A stretch of 64,000 nt of DNA from a virus. Taxonomy: Duplodnaviria; Heunggongvirae; Uroviricota; Caudoviricetes. The position numbers were made by a program, and so were the translations under genes. Where the stretch lies: the IMG/VR virus record IMGVR_UViG_3300037321_000115, one strand, 5' to 3'. Below are positions 3,955-28,078 of the stretch, one piece after another. Position 1 is the first letter of the stretch. Every line of letters starts with the position of its first letter. A model generated the notes under the pieces. That model searched no databases and was not told where the DNA came from. It worked only from the letters and a program-made list of their open reading frames with translations.

Positions 3955-4004
3955 AGGATCCTCTTTGGTTTAAATGTTGGGGTGTGTGTTGATGATGGGT
4001 GTAG

Positions 4005-4043
4005 AAAGATGTTGGCGAGATTCAGATCTCGCCAACATCTTTT
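4005..4043. terminator. intrinsic terminator or strong hairpin between nrdB and nrdA
   Basis: AAAGATGTTGGCGAGA-ttcaga-TCTCGCCAACATCTTT perfect inverted repeat. Confidence 0.7.
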
Positions 4044-4048
4044 GGGAT

Positions 4049-5287
4049 CTAGAACAGGTCATCTTCTGAAAAAGATTTAGATTTTTTGTTATAACTAGTG
4101 GACCGTTTAACAAAAAAGTCGGAATTTTTTGTGCTAAGAATTTCTTCTACGAACCAGTCTGTTGTTCGTACCTTCTCTTCGTCTACATCATACAATGGCT
4201 TCATGTCAATTGCAACCAAAGACTGGTTGAACCTGTACTTGAGAAACTCTTTTACAGTGTCTTTTGGCATGAAATCAAGATCTACGTCGCCGTATATCCA
4301 ATCAACAATTGCAGATTCTGCCTTGAATGCGTCACGTGCAAGTCGGTTAATTTCTGTCGTTGTGTCCTTGGTCCACCATTCTGGGTTTTCGGCCTTGATG
4401 ATGTTTACAATTTCAAACCCAAATCGTGCGTGGACATCTTCTTCTTTCGACGTTGCTTCTACGGCGTTGGAAATACCCTTCAAGATGTTCTTGTGTTTGT
4501 TGAAAGCCATGATAATTAGGAACTGGGAAAACAAAGATACGTTTTCCACAAACATTGAAAATAGAATTATTTTATAAAAATAATCTTTATCGTCTATTGG
4601 TGCTTGTATTGATTGTTCAAGATATGCAATGCGTTTTCTGATGGCAGGAACTTCAACAATTTTTTCAAATTCTTCGTTCAGCCCCATTATTTCAATTAAA
4701 TTCGAATACGCATCTGCATGTCGAACTTCTGATTCGCCAAAAGTTATGCCAACAGCTTGAACTTCCGGCTTTGGCATCTTGTCACCAATCTTAGCCCAAA
4801 AAGTTTTCACCTGTACCTCAATCTGCGAAATAGCAAGCATAGATCTTTTCACAATTTCTACCTCAGATGGTGTCATCTTAACTTTCATGTCTTGGATATC
4901 AGACGTGAAATTAAATTCTGCGTGGGTCCAATAGCTGTGGCGAATTGCATCAACATATTCTATAAGTTGTGGATATTCGTAAGGTTTTAGATTTGTACGC
5001 TTCCGAAAGATGTCAGGCATATTTTTGTGACGATAAAGAATATATTCACGTGCAAGGTCATGCAGCCCCATATCCATCAACACATTTTCAACAGCAAGGT
5101 GAACAACATCAACCTCGACACTCAATCCGTCATACTCTTTCATTATTTTATCTGTGACGTCTGTTGCGACTTCCACAGGAATAGACTTACTCTTTATCCC
5201 AATAGATTTCATCGCTTTTGACACAGCGTTCTCTATTTTAACGGAACCGAATTCTTCTAGCGTTCCGTTTCTTTTTCTTACCTGCAT
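4049..5287 (-). CDS. nrdB: ribonucleotide reductase beta subunit with N-terminal ATP-cone
   Basis: N-terminal VRKRNG..EEF...KI..AV.KA cone motif; diiron ligands SEVRHADAY and KEEDVHARFG; C-terminal DFF. Confidence 0.92.
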   Translation of the reverse strand: MQVRKRNGTLEEFGSVKIENAVSKAMKSIGIKSKSIPVEVATDVTDKIMKEYDGLSVEVDVVHLAVENVLMDMGLHDLAREYILYRHKNMPDIFRKRTNLKPYEYPQLIEYVDAIRHSYWTHAEFNFTSDIQDMKVKMTPSEVEIVKRSMLAISQIEVQVKTFWAKIGDKMPKPEVQAVGITFGESEVRHADAYSNLIEIMGLNEEFEKIVEVPAIRKRIAYLEQSIQAPIDDKDYFYKIILFSMFVENVSLFSQFLIIMAFNKHKNILKGISNAVEATSKEEDVHARFGFEIVNIIKAENPEWWTKDTTTEINRLARDAFKAESAIVDWIYGDVDLDFMPKDTVKEFLKYRFNQSLVAIDMKPLYDVDEEKVRTTDWFVEEILSTKNSDFFVKRSTSYNKKSKSFSEDDLF

Positions 5288-5391
5288 CTTGTCTTTCCTT
5301 GTTGTTGTTGATGTAACTGAACGCTAGGTGTCCACTGTCACAAATGATATGATGTCCGTTGTGTCACAAATGTTTTTGCGACACAGTGCGG

Positions 5392-5399
5392 TATTTATA
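5392..5399 (-). promoter_or_regulatory. T4-type late promoter TATAAATA
   Basis: Exact motif upstream of nrdB; same motif on minus strand at 9743, 15267, 18467, 22928, 35843, 36789, 50648, 57486, 58922 and 63871. Confidence 0.7.
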
Positions 5400-5448
5400 A
5401 TTGAACGTGTTTAAACTAGCTTGTGTTTAAGCAAAAAAATAAATATAT

Positions 5449-6339
5449 TTACGTTGCCATCGGTGCTTTTATAGTTGGGTGGTATTGGTATCCATCCAAA
5501 GTAAACAGGTCAACGTCGTTCAACCGGAAGCCGTTCTTGAGCCTATCCATCAGATCAAAGGATTCGTCAATCATTAGCGTAGGCAGCGGATATTCTTTTC
5601 TACTCAGTTGCTCGCTAACTTGATCGAAGTGGTCATTATATACGTGTGCATCGCCAATAGAATGTATAAAATCTCCAACTTCCAAGCTACATTCACGAGC
5701 AATAATATGAGTCAGTAGAGAATACGATGCGATGTTGAAAGGAACTCCCAAGAAGAAATCCCCAGATCTTTGTGTCATCATGCAGCTTAGCTTGTCACCA
5801 CACACGCGAAATTGGACTGCGAAGTGACATGGTGGTAAAGCCATCTCAGATAGCAATGTTGGATTCCATGCAGACAGTAAGATTCTTCTAGAGTTAGGTG
5901 CCATTTTGATTTGTTCGATGATATATTCTATCTGATCGGTCCCAGGCTCCGAATCGAAGAAGCCACCAAAGTCTCTCCAGCTAGATCCATAAATTGGTCC
6001 CAGTTCTTTTGTGGTGTCATTGTTAGTGTATGCTAGTTGAACACCTTGGTTATCTGCATTTGATGTCCATATTGTAGTTTTTCCAATAAGATCTGTTCTT
6101 GGTTTCCCATAGGTCAGCTCTGCAAGTCTCCTTTCATCAGTACTACCTTCAAGCATCCAAAGTAGCTCACCTACTACAGATCGCCACGCAAGCCTTTTTG
6201 TAGTAATAGCAGGAAACCCTTCAGAAAGGTTAAATCTCATTTGATAGCCAAACAATGACCGTGTATCTATTCCTGTACGGTTTTTTACATCTTCCCCACG
6301 CTCTAAAATGTCTTCTAACAAGTCATGATATTGCCTCAT
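5449..6339 (-). CDS. td: thymidylate synthase ThyA
   Basis: GIDTRSLFG, ELLWMLEG, MALPPCH, QRSGDFFLGVPFNIASY, GDAHVY; start placed at the ATGA overlap with the frd stop. Confidence 0.97.
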   Translation of the reverse strand: MRQYHDLLEDILERGEDVKNRTGIDTRSLFGYQMRFNLSEGFPAITTKRLAWRSVVGELLWMLEGSTDERRLAELTYGKPRTDLIGKTTIWTSNADNQGVQLAYTNNDTTKELGPIYGSSWRDFGGFFDSEPGTDQIEYIIEQIKMAPNSRRILLSAWNPTLLSEMALPPCHFAVQFRVCGDKLSCMMTQRSGDFFLGVPFNIASYSLLTHIIARECSLEVGDFIHSIGDAHVYNDHFDQVSEQLSRKEYPLPTLMIDESFDLMDRLKNGFRLNDVDLFTLDGYQYHPTIKAPMAT

Positions 6340-18432: not shown

Positions 18433-18535
18433 AGCAAATCCTCGAGTAAATAATGGGTTCTGAAGGTATTTATATAAAATTAGACTCGTGTGTAATAGAT
18501 TGTTAGTATAAATAAGTTATGGATGATCTTTTGTT

Positions 18536-22908: not shown

Positions 22909-22997
22909 TTCCTTTCGGCTGTGTTTGTATTTATAACTCAACGCGTTGAGCTGTTACCTAATCATAGCGCGCCTCTACACAAAAGGCAACTATCTTA

Positions 22998-23612
22998 TCA
23001 TATGAATCCGTCTGCCTTAGTTTTCTTCCAAGAAGGTTTCATTCTAAATGATTCCTCTTGTCCGAAGTTAGAGGTATCAAACGTAGGCTTATCCTCATCC
23101 TCTCGTGGTTGTTGTTTTTTCCTTGTCTCGTTTTGAACATCGCTCTGCGCACCTTCTTCCAAGTCATACAGCTTCATTTTTGATCTGTCTATTCCAACAA
23201 CAAACCGTCTATAGAATCCAAGATCGCCCCATCTGTTTTTTAACTGCTTGATCATGATTTGGCCCATCGCCTCCAATTCTTCTGAAGAGATCAAGCCGAG
23301 GATACAATCCGCAGTGTGAGCAATCCCCATGCTGTTTTTTGTCAAGATGTTGTTGCAGTAGAACAATTGACTACCTGTTACAGATATATCTACCGTTTCC
23401 ACCATGCCGACATTCTCAATTTCTACAATGGTATCATTATAATCAATTTTACTGTCTTCAACCTGTTGCTTCTCCTCCTTCTCCATCTCCATGCTTATCA
23501 GCAGATCTGTCAGGTCAAACAAGTCCATCTCTTTGGTCATGTTATTGGCGATCATATGATGAGCTTTAACAAAACAATCGTTCTGCATCTTTTCCATTTG
23601 GCTGTCGTTCAT
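22998..23612 (-). CDS. gp41: replicative helicase C-terminal fragment fused to split-intein IntC
   Basis: 93 aa IntC ending VETVDISVTGSQLFYCNNILTKN, then extein SMGIAHTAD..LKNRWGD..RFVVGIDRSKMKLYD. Confidence 0.92.
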   Translation of the reverse strand: MNDSQMEKMQNDCFVKAHHMIANNMTKEMDLFDLTDLLISMEMEKEEKQQVEDSKIDYNDTIVEIENVGMVETVDISVTGSQLFYCNNILTKNSMGIAHTADCILGLISSEELEAMGQIMIKQLKNRWGDLGFYRRFVVGIDRSKMKLYDLEEGAQSDVQNETRKKQQPREDEDKPTFDTSNFGQEESFRMKPSWKKTKADGFI

Positions 23613-23615
23613 ATG

Positions 23616-25001
23616 TTAATCCTCTACCACATTAAGACTGTAACCTACATTTAGTCCCTGACTGACAGATAGTCGCGACACAACACCGTCGTTTGACATA
23701 GATGGAAATACGTGATCCTTACTGACAGTGATTGACTTGCCGCTGTTCATTTTAATCTTGACACAGTCCTTCATCTTAGGATGGTGGACCATCGTGACTA
23801 GCTTTGTACTGTCTTCGCTTTTAATTTTGTCGCCTGGTTTCAGGTCAGATATGCATCTCGACGTTCCGTCACTCATGGTAACTGTTTCTTTAACGTAGAT
23901 ACATTCAGACGTGTTTGTGAGGTCAACGTCGCTCGAATCGTATGCTCCGCGGTTGTACTGACTTGACGATACAATAGGACAATCAAACTCCATTGCTAAA
24001 CCACGTATTTCCTCAGCGATTGACTTGACCAGCGTGTATGAGTTTGCGGCTGCTGCACCCTTCACACGAGAAGATGCACAGATGTTGAGATAATCAATGA
24101 AGATAATATCAGGAACAAACCCCTTCTTTAGTTTCAGCTCATTGAGAAGATGTCTAAAGTGTCCTGCGTGAGCAGACCCTGTAGGGTATTCTTTGACTAC
24201 AAGTTTTCCGGGCGTTCTGCTTTTAACCTTGGCAATTCTTGTATTGAACATTTCTCTGGGCATTTCTCGTAGCTGATCAATTGTGACGTCTAATAGATTA
24301 GCATCAATACGTTCTGCAATTCTCTCCTCAGCCATCTCAGCTGTTATGTAGAGGACGTTCTTGGCATGCATAAGAGAAGCTGCAGCCATGTGACATTTCA
24401 TCAAACTTTTGCCACCACCTGTGGTCGCTAAAATCAACGTCAAGGATTTGCGGGGCAGTCCACCCTTAGTGATTTGGTTCAACAGATCAATGTCAAAAGG
24501 AATTCGCTCTTCTGTGCGATGATAGAAATCATAACGACTGTCTGCATCTTCAATATAATCATGCCCAATGTGACTATCAAAGTTGATTCCAAGCGAATCA
24601 GACAACAGCTTAGGAATAGCACCCTTGTCAAACTCTTTGTCTTGCCCATCAAGAATCAAAATTGCTTTTCTAATTGAATTGAACAGATCCTTGTCTTGGC
24701 AGAACTTCTCTGTCTCGCCTAAAAGCCAATCTTGATTAGTTGCTGCATCAATCTTCAACTCGTCGATGGCTGTATTAACAGCTTTAAACAAATCCTCGTT
24801 GAGATCTTTACGTGCCTCCAGCGTAATCTTGAGAGCCTCAATTGAAGGTGGTTCTTTGTATGTACTGACATATTCAGAGAAAGATGCAAATATCTTTTTG
24901 GTAGCAACATCATCAAAATACTCTTCTTTGATGTATGGGATGACTTTGCGACAAAACTCCCCATTGTAAAGTAGATTAGCAAGAATAGTTTGCTCTATCA
25001 T
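23616..25001 (-). CDS. gp41: replicative helicase N-terminal fragment fused to split-intein IntN
   Basis: Walker A ATTGGGKS, IFIDYLNIC, SQYNR, extein ends DLTNTSE; 95 aa IntN CIYVKE..VSKDHVFP..GLNVG then stop. Confidence 0.93.
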   Translation of the reverse strand: MIEQTILANLLYNGEFCRKVIPYIKEEYFDDVATKKIFASFSEYVSTYKEPPSIEALKITLEARKDLNEDLFKAVNTAIDELKIDAATNQDWLLGETEKFCQDKDLFNSIRKAILILDGQDKEFDKGAIPKLLSDSLGINFDSHIGHDYIEDADSRYDFYHRTEERIPFDIDLLNQITKGGLPRKSLTLILATTGGGKSLMKCHMAAASLMHAKNVLYITAEMAEERIAERIDANLLDVTIDQLREMPREMFNTRIAKVKSRTPGKLVVKEYPTGSAHAGHFRHLLNELKLKKGFVPDIIFIDYLNICASSRVKGAAAANSYTLVKSIAEEIRGLAMEFDCPIVSSSQYNRGAYDSSDVDLTNTSECIYVKETVTMSDGTSRCISDLKPGDKIKSEDSTKLVTMVHHPKMKDCVKIKMNSGKSITVSKDHVFPSMSNDGVVSRLSVSQGLNVGYSLNVVED

Positions 25002-25072
25002 CAGGACCTCTTGTTATAATGGAAATGGGATGGGCAGAGTATCACTCTGCCCATCATTCAATTGTACACTGT

Positions 25073-25672
25073 TTATTCGTATGTGTCCATGTCCATTTCC
25101 ACATCTGCATCATCTTCTCCGTGGCTGTCGTCCGACTTCTTTTGAGTTGCAGACAGTTTGAACTTGCGCTCTACAAACTCTTTGAAATCCACGTTTTTAA
25201 CAAGTTTTTCAAAAAAAGCATTGTTAGTAACCACATCTGCCTGACGATAGTTCTTCTCGTCTACTTCGCCTGTCTCAGGATCAACAAGATTGTACCAACC
25301 AACCTTCGGTTTCGTGATGAAGCCAGATTCCATTGCAATGTCGAAGATTGCAGTCCACTTTTGTATACCATCCTCATACATTACAGTGAATGGTAGTTTA
25401 GATTTCTCTTTGACGTAACGTGACTTCTCAATGTTGATTGTGAACTTCCATCCTGCAAGCTCAGTTCCGTCTTTCTCTTGTGACTTGCTGATGATGAACA
25501 CAGTATTTGCTGAATACATGATTCCCGTCCCACCACTAACAATGGCCTTGGGATATAAGGAATTGTGTGCAATTACTCCGTTGTCAAGCTCAAAGCAATG
25601 GTCTTCCTCTACAGTTATGTCGTATATTGGAAACGGATCGACTTTTTTAATTCCAGTAAGAGTTCTCATCAT
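25073..25672 (-). CDS. uvsX: RecA-like recombinase C-terminal fragment fused to split-intein IntC
   Basis: 37 aa IntC MMRTLTGIKK..IYDITVEEDHCFELDNGVIAHN, then extein SLYPKAIVSGGTGIMYSANTVFII..KSRYVKEKSK. Confidence 0.93.
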   Translation of the reverse strand: MMRTLTGIKKVDPFPIYDITVEEDHCFELDNGVIAHNSLYPKAIVSGGTGIMYSANTVFIISKSQEKDGTELAGWKFTINIEKSRYVKEKSKLPFTVMYEDGIQKWTAIFDIAMESGFITKPKVGWYNLVDPETGEVDEKNYRQADVVTNNAFFEKLVKNVDFKEFVERKFKLSATQKKSDDSHGEDDADVEMDMDTYE

Positions 25673-25883
25673 TTACCTTTCGTTTTACAATTGTCAAAAT
25701 GCCACCTCTTAAATGCAGAGGGCATTCCTGTTGATTTCTTGTTACAGTGTGGACAAATTGCCACATCATACACTTTAGTTTTTTCTTTGTAGTTTCTATA
25801 GCAATCTTTAATATTAACATCTAATAAGATTTCATCTGCTTCTGATTTACTGACATCAATATCTCGGTATGTGTCTTAATCAT
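25669..25883 (-). pseudogene. frameshifted or truncated remnant of a free-standing homing endonuclease gene
   Basis: Strong SD AAGGAG + ATG at 25883, frameshift within a few codons, then ..ICPHCNKKSTGMPSAFKRWHFDNCKTKGK-stop, a zinc-finger tail typical of phage homing endonucleases. Confidence 0.7.
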
Positions 25884-25887
25884 GAGC

Positions 25888-25928
25888 TTCTCCTTTTATT
25901 AACCATGCTTATTTTTATAAAAGGAGAA
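25888..25928 (-). promoter_or_regulatory. RBS-sequestering hairpin with embedded late-promoter-like motif
   Basis: 12-bp perfect inverted repeat TTCTCCTTTTAT/ATAAAAGGAGAA whose 3' arm contains the SD of the remnant gene; TATAAAAATA overlaps the 5' arm. Confidence 0.7.
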
Positions 25929-25942
25929 ACTTCATGTATGGT

Positions 25943-26815
25943 TTACCTAAATTTGGTACCCATATTCATACTTCCAGCTTCGACCCAGTTTCCGAACACA
26001 TCAAGAAACTTGTGGTCGTTGGTACACCTGACAGTAGAGCCATCATCAAACTGCAATTCGAAAAATTCTTTGTCTTCCGAATCCAATCTTTCAGGTCCAA
26101 GCGTATCAAGCACTTTTTGCATACCGTTCTGAGTATAAACCATGTCACCAACATTTATGTCCTTAATGTTGATAGAACCTCTGTTGGTTTTCACGAGCGT
26201 ATCACCAGCTAAACATTGCTCCAGATATACGTGATTCACTGCAAGGCACGGAATTCCTTTAGTTGTCAGGTATGGCGTGATGATACGAAACAACGACTTC
26301 AAGCTCTTGGCACGTGACATGTCCGCGACAGACTTTTCGTTTTGTGCATCTTCTAGCTCTTTCTTAGATGCAAGGTTGCCGACCGAGTCAATCATGATAA
26401 ACACTTTGTCTTTTTTGCCAATCGCATCTAACTTTTGAACCATATCGAACTTGAGCTCCTCCACATCCTTGACGGGAATGTGAACAACGCGATCAATGTC
26501 GATGTCGATGCTCTCAATGTACTCTGGTGTAATACCAAACTCAGAGTCATATAGCAGCGCAATGCCCTCAGGGTACTTGTCCAAATATGCCTTCATGCAG
26601 TAGAGGCTCAGTAGAGTTTTGAAGCTCTTTGATACACCTGCAACAACAGTCAATCCTGGTAGAAGCCCACCATCAATAGATCCACTAAATGCAATGTTGA
26701 GAATTGGGAGGTCGGTAGGAATTGCTTCCTTTGCATTGAAAAAGGGCGATGAGGATAGAACAGCAGAAGATTTGGTACTCCCCGTGCTTAGCATCTTTTC
26801 AAGTAGTGTACTCAT
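25943..26815 (-). CDS. uvsX: RecA-like recombinase N-terminal fragment fused to split-intein IntN
   Basis: GVSKSFKT Walker A, YDSEFG, IDSVGNLASKKE, extein ends VNHVYLEQ; 90 aa IntN CLAGDT..CTNDHKF then stop. Confidence 0.93.
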   Translation of the reverse strand: MSTLLEKMLSTGSTKSSAVLSSSPFFNAKEAIPTDLPILNIAFSGSIDGGLLPGLTVVAGVSKSFKTLLSLYCMKAYLDKYPEGIALLYDSEFGITPEYIESIDIDIDRVVHIPVKDVEELKFDMVQKLDAIGKKDKVFIMIDSVGNLASKKELEDAQNEKSVADMSRAKSLKSLFRIITPYLTTKGIPCLAVNHVYLEQCLAGDTLVKTNRGSINIKDINVGDMVYTQNGMQKVLDTLGPERLDSEDKEFFELQFDDGSTVRCTNDHKFLDVFGNWVEAGSMNMGTKFR

Positions 26816-27090
26816 TTTTTATGTTTCCCTTCTGTGATCATTTTCAAACGTGTCTTAAATTCAGTAATCTTTTCCACTCTATCAGGCCAAAGAATAGTAG
26901 ACCTGCTTGGGTTTCTGCATAAGTTGTCAAGAAACGGAGTGATGGTATCATATAGAAGATCTACACGTGATTGCAATTCTTCCATCTCTTCTTTGTGTGA
27001 TGAATGTTCTTTGAGTTTGGCTTCAACATTCTCGTCAACGAACGAAAATCCGAAGTCAAACTCAACATCTGAGTCTGTCTTTTTTGTCAT
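26812..27090 (-). CDS. conserved T4-like hypothetical protein
   Basis: FDFGFSFV and PFLDNL..NP....I.WPDR motifs. Confidence 0.7.
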   Translation of the reverse strand: MTKKTDSDVEFDFGFSFVDENVEAKLKEHSSHKEEMEELQSRVDLLYDTITPFLDNLCRNPSRSTILWPDRVEKITEFKTRLKMITEGKHKK

Positions 27091-27116
27091 AATGTGATTT
27101 TTCTAAATGATAATAG

Positions 27117-27150
27117 GCGAGGCTGCTGTTTCGAAACAGCAGCCTCGCCT
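27117..27150. terminator. terminator after gp32
   Basis: GGCGAGGCTGCTGTT-tcga-AACAGCAGCCTCGCC long perfect hairpin. Confidence 0.75.
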
Positions 27151-27157
27151 CTATATC

Positions 27158-28078
27158 TTAATTGTCGGCGAGATTGCGGAAGAATGCCAAATCGTCGTCT
27201 GTATCAGCGGACGGGGACGTGTCAGAAGTAGAGCTCTTCTTTTCAGGTTCTTCTGAAACGTTGCTGAGTTTACTCATGTCGAGGTCCTCGTCAACCATAT
27301 TCTCTGCAGTTGAATTGTTACTTTCACCGAGGTTGCCTGAAACGCCAAGCACTTTGTGGAGACGTGCCTGCAGATCATCGTATGTTTTGAACTGTGAAGG
27401 TGCAATCAATTCTGCAAGAGAATTCAGCTGCTTGTACGTCTCTTCAAGCTTGACTTCGTCACCATCGTACAGTTGAGACGCTTCTTCCCACTCTGAACGA
27501 TCATAGTTTGGATAGCCTTCATATTGACGAATCTTCAGTTTGAAGTTAGCACCTTCCCAGAAGTCGAATGGGTTGATTGGCGTTTCGTCTTCGAACTGTG
27601 GCTTCATCATGTCGTTCAGCTTGTCAAAGATCTTTTTACCGTACGCGTAAAGAAAGACCTTGCCTTCGTTTTCAGGTTCAGCTGAATCTTTGACGACGAG
27701 AATGTTCGAATGGTACTTCAGACGACGCTTCTGCTTGCGAACTTGCTCTTTGTCAGCTTCGTTCCCTGTATTCCACAGCTTTGCGTTGAATTTGCCCAAC
27801 GGATCATCTTGTCCAATAGTGGACAAAGACTTCTCGATGTACCATCCACCTGTACTCTTAAATGCGTGATCCCACACACGAACGAAAGGAACGTCATCAC
27901 CCTCTGCAGCAGGCAGAAAGCGAATGATTGCGAATCCATTACCTGCAGTGTCGCGAGTAGGGGTCCAGTATTTTTCTTTGAGGGGATCTGCGAAGCCTTT
28001 TGAGGCCATCTTGTCAAGCTGTGACGAAAGTTTGTCCAGTGAGCTTGAACGGTTCTTCTTTAAATTTGCAAAAGACAT
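27158..28078 (-). CDS. gp32: single-stranded DNA-binding protein
   Basis: AIIRFLPA, WYIEKSLSTIGQDDP, GKVFLYAYGKKIFDK, PFDFWEGANFKLKI, acidic tail ending DDLAFFRNLA. Confidence 0.96.
   Translation of the reverse strand: MSFANLKKNRSSSLDKLSSQLDKMASKGFADPLKEKYWTPTRDTAGNGFAIIRFLPAAEGDDVPFVRVWDHAFKSTGGWYIEKSLSTIGQDDPLGKFNAKLWNTGNEADKEQVRKQKRRLKYHSNILVVKDSAEPENEGKVFLYAYGKKIFDKLNDMMKPQFEDETPINPFDFWEGANFKLKIRQYEGYPNYDRSEWEEASQLYDGDEVKLEETYKQLNSLAELIAPSQFKTYDDLQARLHKVLGVSGNLGESNNSTAENMVDEDLDMSKLSNVSEEPEKKSSTSDTSPSADTDDDLAFFRNLADN

Follow-up and report, generated by a model that had tools for sequence, protein, structure and literature searches.

The window, the whole stretch of 64,000 nucleotides that was analysed, carried a uvsX recombinase gene in two pieces at one locus, on the same (minus) strand and in the original order. 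The source phage is an uncultured T4-like myovirus whose own contig measures 264 kb. The upstream piece, the N-gene (25943..26815, minus strand; 290 aa plus stop), encodes the ATPase core up to loop L2, closed by the N-terminal part of an intein (IntN). Its N-extein (26216..26815, minus strand) comprises 200 codons, ends in V-N-H-V-Y-L-E-Q and aligned with T4 UvsX up to Q200. IntN (25946..26215, minus strand) follows with 90 codons, including Cys1 in block A (C-L-A-G-D-T-L) and T-N-D-H in block B, and the stop codon lies at 25943-25945 (minus strand). After a spacer of 270 nt (25673-25942), the C-gene (25073..25672, minus strand; 199 aa plus stop) opens with the C-terminal part of the intein (IntC) and continues with the remainder of L2 and the UvsX C-terminal domain. 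IntC (25562..25672, minus strand) has 37 codons with Y-D-I-T-V..D-H-C-F in block F and V-I-A-H-N in block G. The Ser+1 codon (25559-25561, minus strand) opens the C-extein (25076..25561, minus strand), which consists of 162 codons, Ser+1 plus 161 UvsX residues, and begins S-L-Y-P-K-A-I-V-S-G-G-T-G.

An earlier note on this DNA had described the 90-aa IntN, a 37-aa IntC and their separation by 270 nt. The coordinates and residues of both halves and the length of the gap were exact, but the length of IntC may need correction by one residue. The C-gene begins ATG-ATG and its relatives begin M-R-K-L; translation may therefore actually start at the second ATG (25669), in which case IntC would be 36 aa long. 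Upstream of the C-gene there was only a weak Shine-Dalgarno-like element (A-A-A-G-G), and a promoter and terminator scan of 24900-27200 returned nothing inside the locus that exceeded the shuffled background.

Both exteins were recognizable as UvsX. The N-gene matched Pfam RecA (PF00154; 32.1 against 27) and PHROG 8337 and 97 (E 5e-66 and 3e-62), and the C-gene matched Pfam T4_UVSX_C (PF21134; 40.9 against 27) and PHROG 18112 (E 8e-47). The structure of T4 UvsX (PDB 3IO5) was matched by the N-extein (E 1e-62) as well as by the C-extein (E 9e-34). In this alignment the last N-extein residue and Ser+1 fell on the adjacent chain positions 175 and 176, with zero residues gained or lost, which corresponds to Q200|E201 of T4 UvsX, in loop L2; we refer to this position as site a. 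The predicted spliced product has 200 + 162 = 362 aa, compared with 350–366 aa in intein-free relatives. The claim of the earlier note that the junction restores the L2 region and gives 362 aa was thus borne out. Intein-free alleles hold Glu or Gly at the position of Ser+1.

The intein itself was detected with curated models. NCBIfam TIGR01445 (intein N-terminal) scored 27.5 against a cut-off of 24.5 over residues 201–271 of the N-gene, and TIGR01443 (intein C-terminal) scored 24.6 against a cut-off of 15.6 over residues 16–38 of the C-gene. The Pfam models Hint_2, Hint and Intein_splicing stayed under their gathering thresholds in a search with both halves. The intein region of the N-gene was also matched by the gp41-1 intein (PDB 6QAZ; E 7e-4). 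The block A nucleophile is Cys201 of the N-gene, directly after L-E-Q, and is invariant in 18 family members. Across these 18 site-a IntN sequences (42–57% identity), C1, T70, H73 and a D-D-G-S core were invariant, and the length of IntN was exactly 90 aa in 14 of them, so the position of the stop is conserved. Block B lies at intein residues 65–68 (N-gene residues 265–268), where the second residue is Asn in this phage (T-N-D-H) and His or Gly in most relatives (as in T-H-D-H). The Asn variant of block B is tolerated in other inteins. Blocks F and G read Y-D-I-T-V-E-E-D-H-C-F ... V-I-A-H-N | S, and among six IntC sequences Y17 and D18 (Y-D-I), H25 (D-H), the A-H-N motif and Ser+1 were all invariant. 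On these matches and residues, the element is assigned as a naturally split class-1 intein with a canonical split, situated in loop L2 of UvsX.

The spacer showed traces of a gene at both of its ends. On the minus strand at 25821..25883, an ATG is followed by 19 codons (M-I-K-T-H-T..) and a stop; about the first eight codons appear to be retained, with K-L-M-I-K-T-H matching the starts of the intact 331- and 341-aa endonucleases of the related contigs L003 and L008. This match is short, and the assignment as a 5' remnant is therefore only suggestive. The 3' remnant (25669..25806, minus strand) covers the last approximately 45 codons, with the tail C-P-H-C..K-R-W-H-F-D-N-C-K, and its stop codon shares nucleotides with the ATG at which the C-gene opens (ATGA). 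The endonucleases of L003 and L008 matched this tail of the spacer in tblastn with E values of 3e-14 and 6e-16, and the endonuclease families PHROG 27406, 12324 and 655 matched the 3' remnant as well (E 3e-7 to 1e-3). By these similarities, the 270-nt gap is interpreted as a decayed homing-endonuclease gene. Because the endonuclease reading frame is broken, the C-gene would have lost whatever translational coupling it had to the endonuclease. Upstream of the 5' remnant, an RNA hairpin was predicted (25881..25936, minus strand) whose 14-bp core stem would occlude the translation start of the decayed endonuclease gene, its ATG as well as the AAGGAG ribosome site. Its folding energy was −21.9 kcal/mol (z −5.7), and none of 200 shuffled sequences was equally stable. 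The motif TATAAAAATA, which resembles a late promoter inexactly, overlaps the 5' arm and the loop of the hairpin. Hairpins in the 5' UTR have been described for the endonucleases of fractured genes, and the layout of the hairpin here agrees with them (PMC2677866).

The decay of the endonuclease gene raised the question of whether the intein, or uvsX with it, had also become non-functional and was turning into a pseudogene. Such a course would fit the clearly broken gene between the halves and the finding of exactly this allele on one contig only among the matches listed. In contrast, both uvsX reading frames are intact, they end and start at positions conserved in the family, and all catalytic residues of the intein are present. 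Compared with L004, a relative with about 91% DNA identity to this window, the N-extein differed at 30 nucleotides and a single amino acid (dN/dS 0.023) and the C-extein gave a dN/dS of 0.06. These ratios are indicative of strong purifying selection on both exteins. For the intein, dS relative to its relatives was saturated. UvsX is part of a conserved T4-like replication and recombination module, and a second uvsX was not seen within the window. We therefore regard a decaying uvsX locus as very unlikely. The reading of the locus as a fractured uvsX with a naturally split intein, which the earlier note had proposed, is supported by the curated models, the junction colinear with T4 UvsX, the catalytic residues that are invariant in a family of about 50% identity, and the purifying selection on the exteins.

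An unsplit (cis) relative, P0123, which shares 48% identity with IntN, was modelled with AlphaFold2 (pLDDT 89), and the top PDB matches of the model were inteins or related HINT-fold domains, the best being the gp41-1 split intein (6QAZ; TM 0.71/0.83). Complex prediction weakly supported an association of IntN with IntC: the ipSAE was 0.57, whereas the best control reached 0.02; the runs shared at least 96% of their contacts, with a partner pLDDT of at least 69. Of 80 solved complexes, 58 reached the mark applied to such predictions, as did two of 110 mismatched pairs; scores of 0.60 or lower, as obtained here, comprised only seven of the 80 solved complexes, yet both of the mismatches that passed. 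Because split-intein complexes have already been solved, the score possibly reflects likeness to known complexes and not binding of this particular copy. The split intein is real and probably functional.

Association of the two halves would not by itself imply splicing. The intein halves could merely dock the UvsX fragments onto each other, yielding a two-chain recombinase with no peptide ligation; split-intein halves bind tightly ahead of any chemistry, and because L2 is a surface loop, a UvsX nicked there might still fold. However, docking alone needs neither Cys1, the Thr and His of block B, the penultimate His and terminal Asn, nor Ser+1, all of which are invariant at about 50% identity. 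The presence of Ser+1 in place of the Glu or Gly of intein-free alleles is also as expected for a required nucleophile. Furthermore, as L2 is a DNA-binding loop, UvsX would probably be unable to bind DNA with a HINT domain of 127 aa left inside that loop. Non-covalent complementation is accordingly rated as highly improbable, and trans-splicing as the preferred reading.

The same split architecture was present on independent contigs from differing samples and sources (L003, L006, L007, L008, L011, L013, L014, L016 and L017), and approximately 20 metagenomic UvsX N-halves bear this intein at site a. Intact endonuclease genes coding for 331–346 aa lie between the halves in L003, L008, L016 and L017, and a layout with site a only and no endonuclease recurs independently in L013 and L014. 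Unsplit mini-inteins occupy site a in P0123 and P0137. A further insertion point, site b, lies 11 residues downstream, at G211|T212 of T4 UvsX; it is empty in the C-extein of this phage (G-G|T-G) and is the only one occupied in L004. Both sites are occupied in L003, L011 and L017, where uvsX is in three pieces and the middle piece consists of IntC of site a, 11 extein residues and IntN of site b. Other combinations were P0129, with an unsplit intein at site a and a split one at site b, and P0127, with an IntC of a P-loop site and an IntN of site a. UvsX thus has at least three intein sites (P-loop, a and b), and related phages occupy neither, one or both of sites a and b.

This diversity also bears on whether the locus could be an artefact, that is, a metagenomic contig in which two alleles were joined. 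The window stems from an uncultured assembly, and assemblers could be confused by the different cassettes that related phages carry at these two sites. Against this, the architecture recurs on the many independent contigs named above, the halves belong together (a site-a IntN is paired with a site-a IntC), and the flanks are colinear with L004 across 7.5 kb. A chimera is thus extremely improbable.

The earlier note had called UvsX an uncommon host protein for a split intein. This does not hold, because fractured uvsX genes occur in 25 records of cultured Straboviridae, where the intein is at site b, form PHROG families of their own (8337 and 18112), and make up the majority among the best 120 database relatives. 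The examples with site b include Escherichia phages RPN226 and HY03, Shewanella phage Thanatos-1, Proteus phage Pm5461 and Vibrio phage EniLVp02. They share with site a the host protein, loop L2, the canonical split, Cys1 and the design of the cassette, and the IntN sequences of the two sites are homologous at about 33–36% identity. They differ in having Thr+1 and an IntN of about 96 aa, as opposed to Ser+1 and 90 aa at site a, and in a spacer endonuclease of a different family (GIY-YIG/NUMOD3). No cultured phage record contained a site-a IntN above 42% identity, and site a was found neither in cultured phages nor in the searchable open literature, which yielded no description of a UvsX with a split intein. 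A word-based search with IntN alone gave nine candidates and was too insensitive for counting. A profile search with the IntN alignment against 1.84 billion representatives gave 13,687 matches, mostly long multi-intein proteins, which do not translate into a clean count of UvsX alleles. The 788 phage records covering at least 80% of the N-gene were rejected as a count of intein-bearing alleles, because alignments of UvsX without an intein extend spuriously into the intein region, as that with 3IO5 does. The chances seem evenly balanced that site a is an undescribed insertion point in UvsX and that its intein is one of a presumably orthogonal natural pair located 11 residues apart in L2.

Among solved structures, the nearest were gp41-1 and the Npu and Ssp DnaE inteins (PDB 6QAZ, 4KL5 and 1ZD7), which matched the cis relative P0123 with E values of 7e-5 to 1e-6. 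They are likewise class-1 inteins with a canonical split, fragments of approximately 90 and 36 aa, Cys1 and a terminal Asn, but they reside in other host genes and share only about 22–27% identity with the model of the cis relative. The pair of this phage combines Cys1 with Ser+1. VidaL (PDB 6VGV) is also a natural split intein; its name presumably goes back to a UvsX gene from a metagenome of Lake Vida. Its split is atypical, with an IntN of 16 aa (PMC13014065). VidaL had 14% identity to the site-a model (P0123) and ranked 50th in the fold search, and it differs in lineage, in split position and apparently also in insertion site.

The overall organization resembles the fractured genes of Dassa, London, Stoddard, Schueler-Furman and Pietrokovski (2009; PMC2677866), in which a T4-like DNA-metabolism gene is broken in place by a canonically split intein into two reading frames on the same strand, and in which the start of the endonuclease is preceded by a hairpin and by a motif resembling a late promoter. 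That study does not have UvsX among its host enzymes and shows it only next to gp41, as an intact gene (PMC2677866). An intact endonuclease between the halves is a feature of fractured genes, and here there was only a remnant; the endonuclease is typical rather than obligatory, since Dassa et al. include the endonuclease-less locus gp41-7 (PMC2677866), which is especially close to the present one. In contrast to gp41-7, the locus described here keeps both ends of an internally deleted gene. In their model, its state would be step III, at which the endonuclease is lost (PMC2677866). The locus is a real, ordinary fractured gene, and the kind to which it belongs is well known and frequent in uvsX. 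Its anatomy, family membership, colinearity and conservation and the endonuclease remnant are seen in the sequence, while association of the halves, splicing and its efficiency are inferred.

We estimate the probability at roughly 85% that this locus is a fractured uvsX with a class-1, canonically split intein in L2 (T4 Q200/E201) and a spacer derived from an endonuclease gene, whose product is restored by trans-splicing. Both genes, lying in one gene cluster on the same strand, would be translated separately. The IntN of 90 aa and the IntC of 36 or 37 aa would then assemble into a HINT fold and carry out protein trans-splicing by means of Cys1, the Thr and His of block B, the terminal His-Asn and Ser+1. 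The intein halves would be released and L-E-Q joined to S-L-Y-P-K, giving a UvsX of 362 aa colinear with its intact homologues. In this scheme a free-standing endonuclease gene would have split the intein and formerly mobilized the cassette, and this gene would since have lost about 270 internal codons, so that only its start, its tail and the hairpin that sequesters the ribosome-binding site persist. As the endonuclease gene is reduced to a remnant, the element is now probably immobile, and it is probably retained only because uvsX needs it for splicing.

The earlier note's view of the intein pair as being of direct biotechnological interest was overstated, as its interest is potential only; the pair (90 + 36/37 aa, Cys1/Ser+1) is no more than a candidate tool. 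The co-occurrence of sites a and b in relatives is a natural three-piece ligation system, and the two inteins suggest an orthogonal pair that could serve multi-fragment protein assembly. A uvsX in three pieces would need two trans-splicing reactions within the same cell that do not cross-react. Site a is a second insertion point in the L2 loop, found only in metagenomes. Together with the three-piece relatives, the occupation of site a only, with a decayed endonuclease, in this phage and of site b only in L004 suggests that two cassettes compete and are still being gained and lost within one phage lineage. Biologically, the locus is one more case in which a selfish intein and endonuclease cassette has established itself in an essential phage enzyme, at its most conserved loop, captured at a stage at which the endonuclease is dead and the split intein can no longer be lost.

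The uvsX recombinase gene of this phage is fractured into two minus-strand open reading frames, an N-gene of 290 aa (25943–26815) and a C-gene of 199 aa (25073–25672). The N-gene product is UvsX-like as far as ..V-N-H-V-Y-L-E-Q, where the N-terminal intein half (IntN) begins; its 90 residues open with C-L-A-G-D-T-L, include R-C-T-N-D-H-K-F and close with ..G-T-K-F-R ahead of a stop codon. The C-gene product starts with the C-terminal intein half (IntC; M-M-R-T-L-T-G-I-K-K..Y-D-I-T-V-E-E-D-H-C-F-E-L-D-N-G-V-I-A-H-N), followed by the C-extein (S-L-Y-P-K-A-I-V-S-G-G-T-G-I-M-Y..), which runs into the UvsX C-terminal domain. On re-reading of the ORFs, all coordinates in the earlier note were correct, as were the 270-nt gap between the genes and the spliced length of 362 aa, the sum of the exteins. 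Pfam detected RecA in the N-gene (32.1, cut-off 27) and T4_UVSX_C in the C-gene (40.9, cut-off 27); its HINT models were sub-threshold. Two curated NCBIfam intein models exceeded their cut-offs, TIGR01445 at N-gene residues 201–271 (27.5 versus 24.5) and TIGR01443 at C-gene residues 16–38 (24.6 versus 15.6). The N-gene matched PHROG 8337 (UvsX N-half with IntN, E = 5e-66) and the C-gene PHROG 18112 (IntC with UvsX C-half, E = 8e-47). On the 3IO5 crystal structure of T4 UvsX, the N-extein ended at chain position 175 and Ser+1 aligned with 176, with zero residues lost or duplicated. The passing intein models on both halves and the colinear junction support the earlier interpretation as a naturally split intein. 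With a construct offset of 25, the insertion point is T4 UvsX Q200|E201 (site a), five residues past His195 and within DNA-binding loop L2 by the established numbering and loop assignment of T4 UvsX and RecA.

Ordinary protein trans-splicing of the UvsX halves is the best-supported mechanism, with the invariant residues pointing to the chemistry and homology to the association. The N-gene and C-gene would be translated apart, IntN and IntC would associate, and an N-S acyl shift at Cys1 would be followed by trans-esterification onto Ser+1, Asn cyclisation and an O-N shift, yielding UvsX of 362 aa. A predicted IntN–IntC complex scored an ipSAE of 0.57 (best control 0.02), a pass that may reflect likeness to similar complexes already solved. 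Of 80 solved complexes, 58 reached the mark, as did 2 of 110 mismatched pairs; scores of 0.60 or lower were found for just 7 of the 80 solved complexes, plus both passing mismatches. The runs agreed in at least 96% of contacts, with a partner pLDDT of at least 69, and the prediction weakly supports association.

The top 120 database relatives of the N-gene included both intact and split uvsX alleles, which the earlier note had proposed to look for. Intein-free UvsX proteins (350–366 aa) shared 76–88% extein identity, about 20 N-halves (287–297 aa) carried the same intein at the same position as the window, and more than 60 (about 301–308 aa) carried an intein after ..S-G-G, at T4 G211|T212 (site b, 11 residues on). 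Invariant positions in the aligned site-a IntN sequences (n = 18, 42–57% identity) were Cys1, Thr and His of block B and the D-D-G-S core; in 14 of them the ORF stopped after exactly 90 intein residues. In IntC (n = 6), Y-D-I, D-H, A-H-N and Ser+1 were invariant. Intein-free alleles have Glu or Gly at the Ser+1 position, so the nucleotide change that supplies the nucleophile accompanies the intein. Unsplit (cis) mini-inteins of about 135 aa occurred at site a in the relatives P0123 and P0137. Modelled with AlphaFold2, the P0123 intein (pLDDT 89, pTM 0.84) had the gp41-1 split intein 6QAZ as its best PDB fold match (TM 0.71/0.83), the other top matches being inteins and related HINT-fold domains; by sequence, DnaE and gp41-1 were the nearest solved inteins to the cis form.

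An intact free-standing endonuclease gene (331–346 aa) separates the site-a halves in the related contigs L003, L008, L016 and L017; it is split in two in L006, reduced to fragments in L007 and absent from L011, L013 and L014. The 270-nt spacer of the window aligned to the 3′ end of the intact gene over the final ~45 codons (E = 3e-14 and 6e-16) and, in a short, suggestive match, to its first ~8; the tail also matched endonuclease PHROGs. Since both ends survive, about 270 codons were lost by internal deletion. As in L003 and L007, the remnant's stop overlaps the first C-gene ATG (ATGA). Because the endonuclease ORF is broken, the C-gene has to initiate from its own weak A-A-A-G-G element; judging by spacing and by the M-R-K-L with which relatives' C-genes begin, the second ATG (25669) is probably the better-fitting start. 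Upstream in the spacer, a hairpin with a core stem of 14 bp (−21.9 kcal/mol, z = −5.7) hides the AAGGAG and ATG of the dead endonuclease gene, the layout that Dassa et al. (PMC2677866) report for the endonucleases of fractured genes. The exact T4 late-promoter octamer TATAAATA was strongly enriched in the window (15 occurrences, 1.7 expected), with 13 of the 15 on the minus (coding) strand (e.g. 22928–22935 and 18467–18474), consistent with T4-type late transcription. The spacer holds only an inexact variant, TATAAAAATA, and no exact TATAAATA.

Over 7.5 kb the sister contig L004 was colinear with the window, its DNA being about 91% identical. Its uvsX (4001–5774; window 25073–26815) has an empty site a and a split site b, with a spacer remnant from a different endonuclease family. 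The divergent block has sites a and b as its exact boundaries and includes the 11 intervening codons. Outside it, the N-extein had 30 nucleotide differences and 1 amino acid difference (dN/dS 0.023), and the C-extein 5 and 1 (dN/dS 0.06), indicating that both fractured forms are kept as working genes. The dS was about fivefold lower in the C-extein (0.05) than in the N-extein (0.24), possibly the footprint of a recent gene-conversion tract.

The phage is a divergent T4-like myovirus, with a gp41 at most 57% identical to cyanomyovirus gp41 and with relatives that bear heme oxygenase and bilin reductase genes. The next gene downstream of uvsX, the DnaB-like helicase gp41 (22998–25001, minus), is fractured too, and two split inteins thus lie back to back. 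The gp41 N-gene (23616–25001, minus) ends in an IntN (C-I-Y-V-K-E-T.., S-K-D-H); the C-gene (22998–23612, minus) begins 3 nt later with a long acidic leader before IntC (..I-L-T-K-N|S), whose penultimate residue is Lys instead of His. Immediately past the uvsX C-gene stop, before gp41, lies a 9-bp stem-loop (25040–25062, minus; G-G-G-C-A-G-A-G-T, 3-nt loop, complement), kept in L004 with compensatory-looking changes; lacking a T-run, it was left uncalled as a terminator. Directly upstream of uvsX, a 92-aa ORF (26812–27090, minus), whose stop overlaps the uvsX start (ATGA), is conserved in L003 (3713–3994), L004 (3726–4004) and L006 with the motif ..P-F-L-D-N-L-C-K/R-N-P..W-P-N/D-R-V, and had no Pfam family in the called-gene tables. 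A perfect 16-bp GC-rich hairpin (27115–27150), scoring as a terminator on both strands, separates the cluster of this ORF and uvsX from a gp32-like gene (27158–28078).

The architecture is that described by Dassa et al. 2009 (PMC2677866), where UvsX is not among the listed hosts, and an intein in UvsX was unmentioned in the searchable literature. The description of UvsX as an uncommon host protein was nevertheless overstated, uvsX being a frequent host. Cultured Straboviridae with the site-b cassette account for 25 GenBank records; their hosts belong to Escherichia, Salmonella, Shigella, Klebsiella, Enterobacter, Proteus, Yersinia, Pseudomonas, Shewanella and Vibrio, and the cassette's halves are annotated just as two "recombination protein" genes. 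Metagenomes held many more. Site a was not found among cultured phages, none of whose records had an IntN above 42% identity to the site-a form. The uvsX gene here is a known kind of fractured gene at an apparently new insertion site.

Relatives showed further states. Site a was split and site b cis in L006 (5930–6952) and L007 (5343–6311), and the reverse held in the relative P0129. P0127 is a 357-aa piece with a P-loop-site IntC and a site-a IntN; UvsX thus has at least three intein sites and many states. Three-piece genes were found in L003 (4001–7858), L011 (2901–4826) and L017 (2910–6875), in the order N-extein–IntN(a); IntC(a)–11 extein residues–IntN(b); IntC(b)–C-extein, with endonuclease genes in both gaps (L003, L017) or in neither (L011). 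The middle proteins (140–154 aa) exceeded the cut-offs of TIGR01443 and TIGR01445 in L003 and L017; that of L011 passed TIGR01443 and fell slightly short for TIGR01445 (20.3 versus 24.5). The three-piece genes look like a natural three-fragment ligation by two presumably orthogonal split inteins, and it is in them, together with the two-site system, that the main interest lies.
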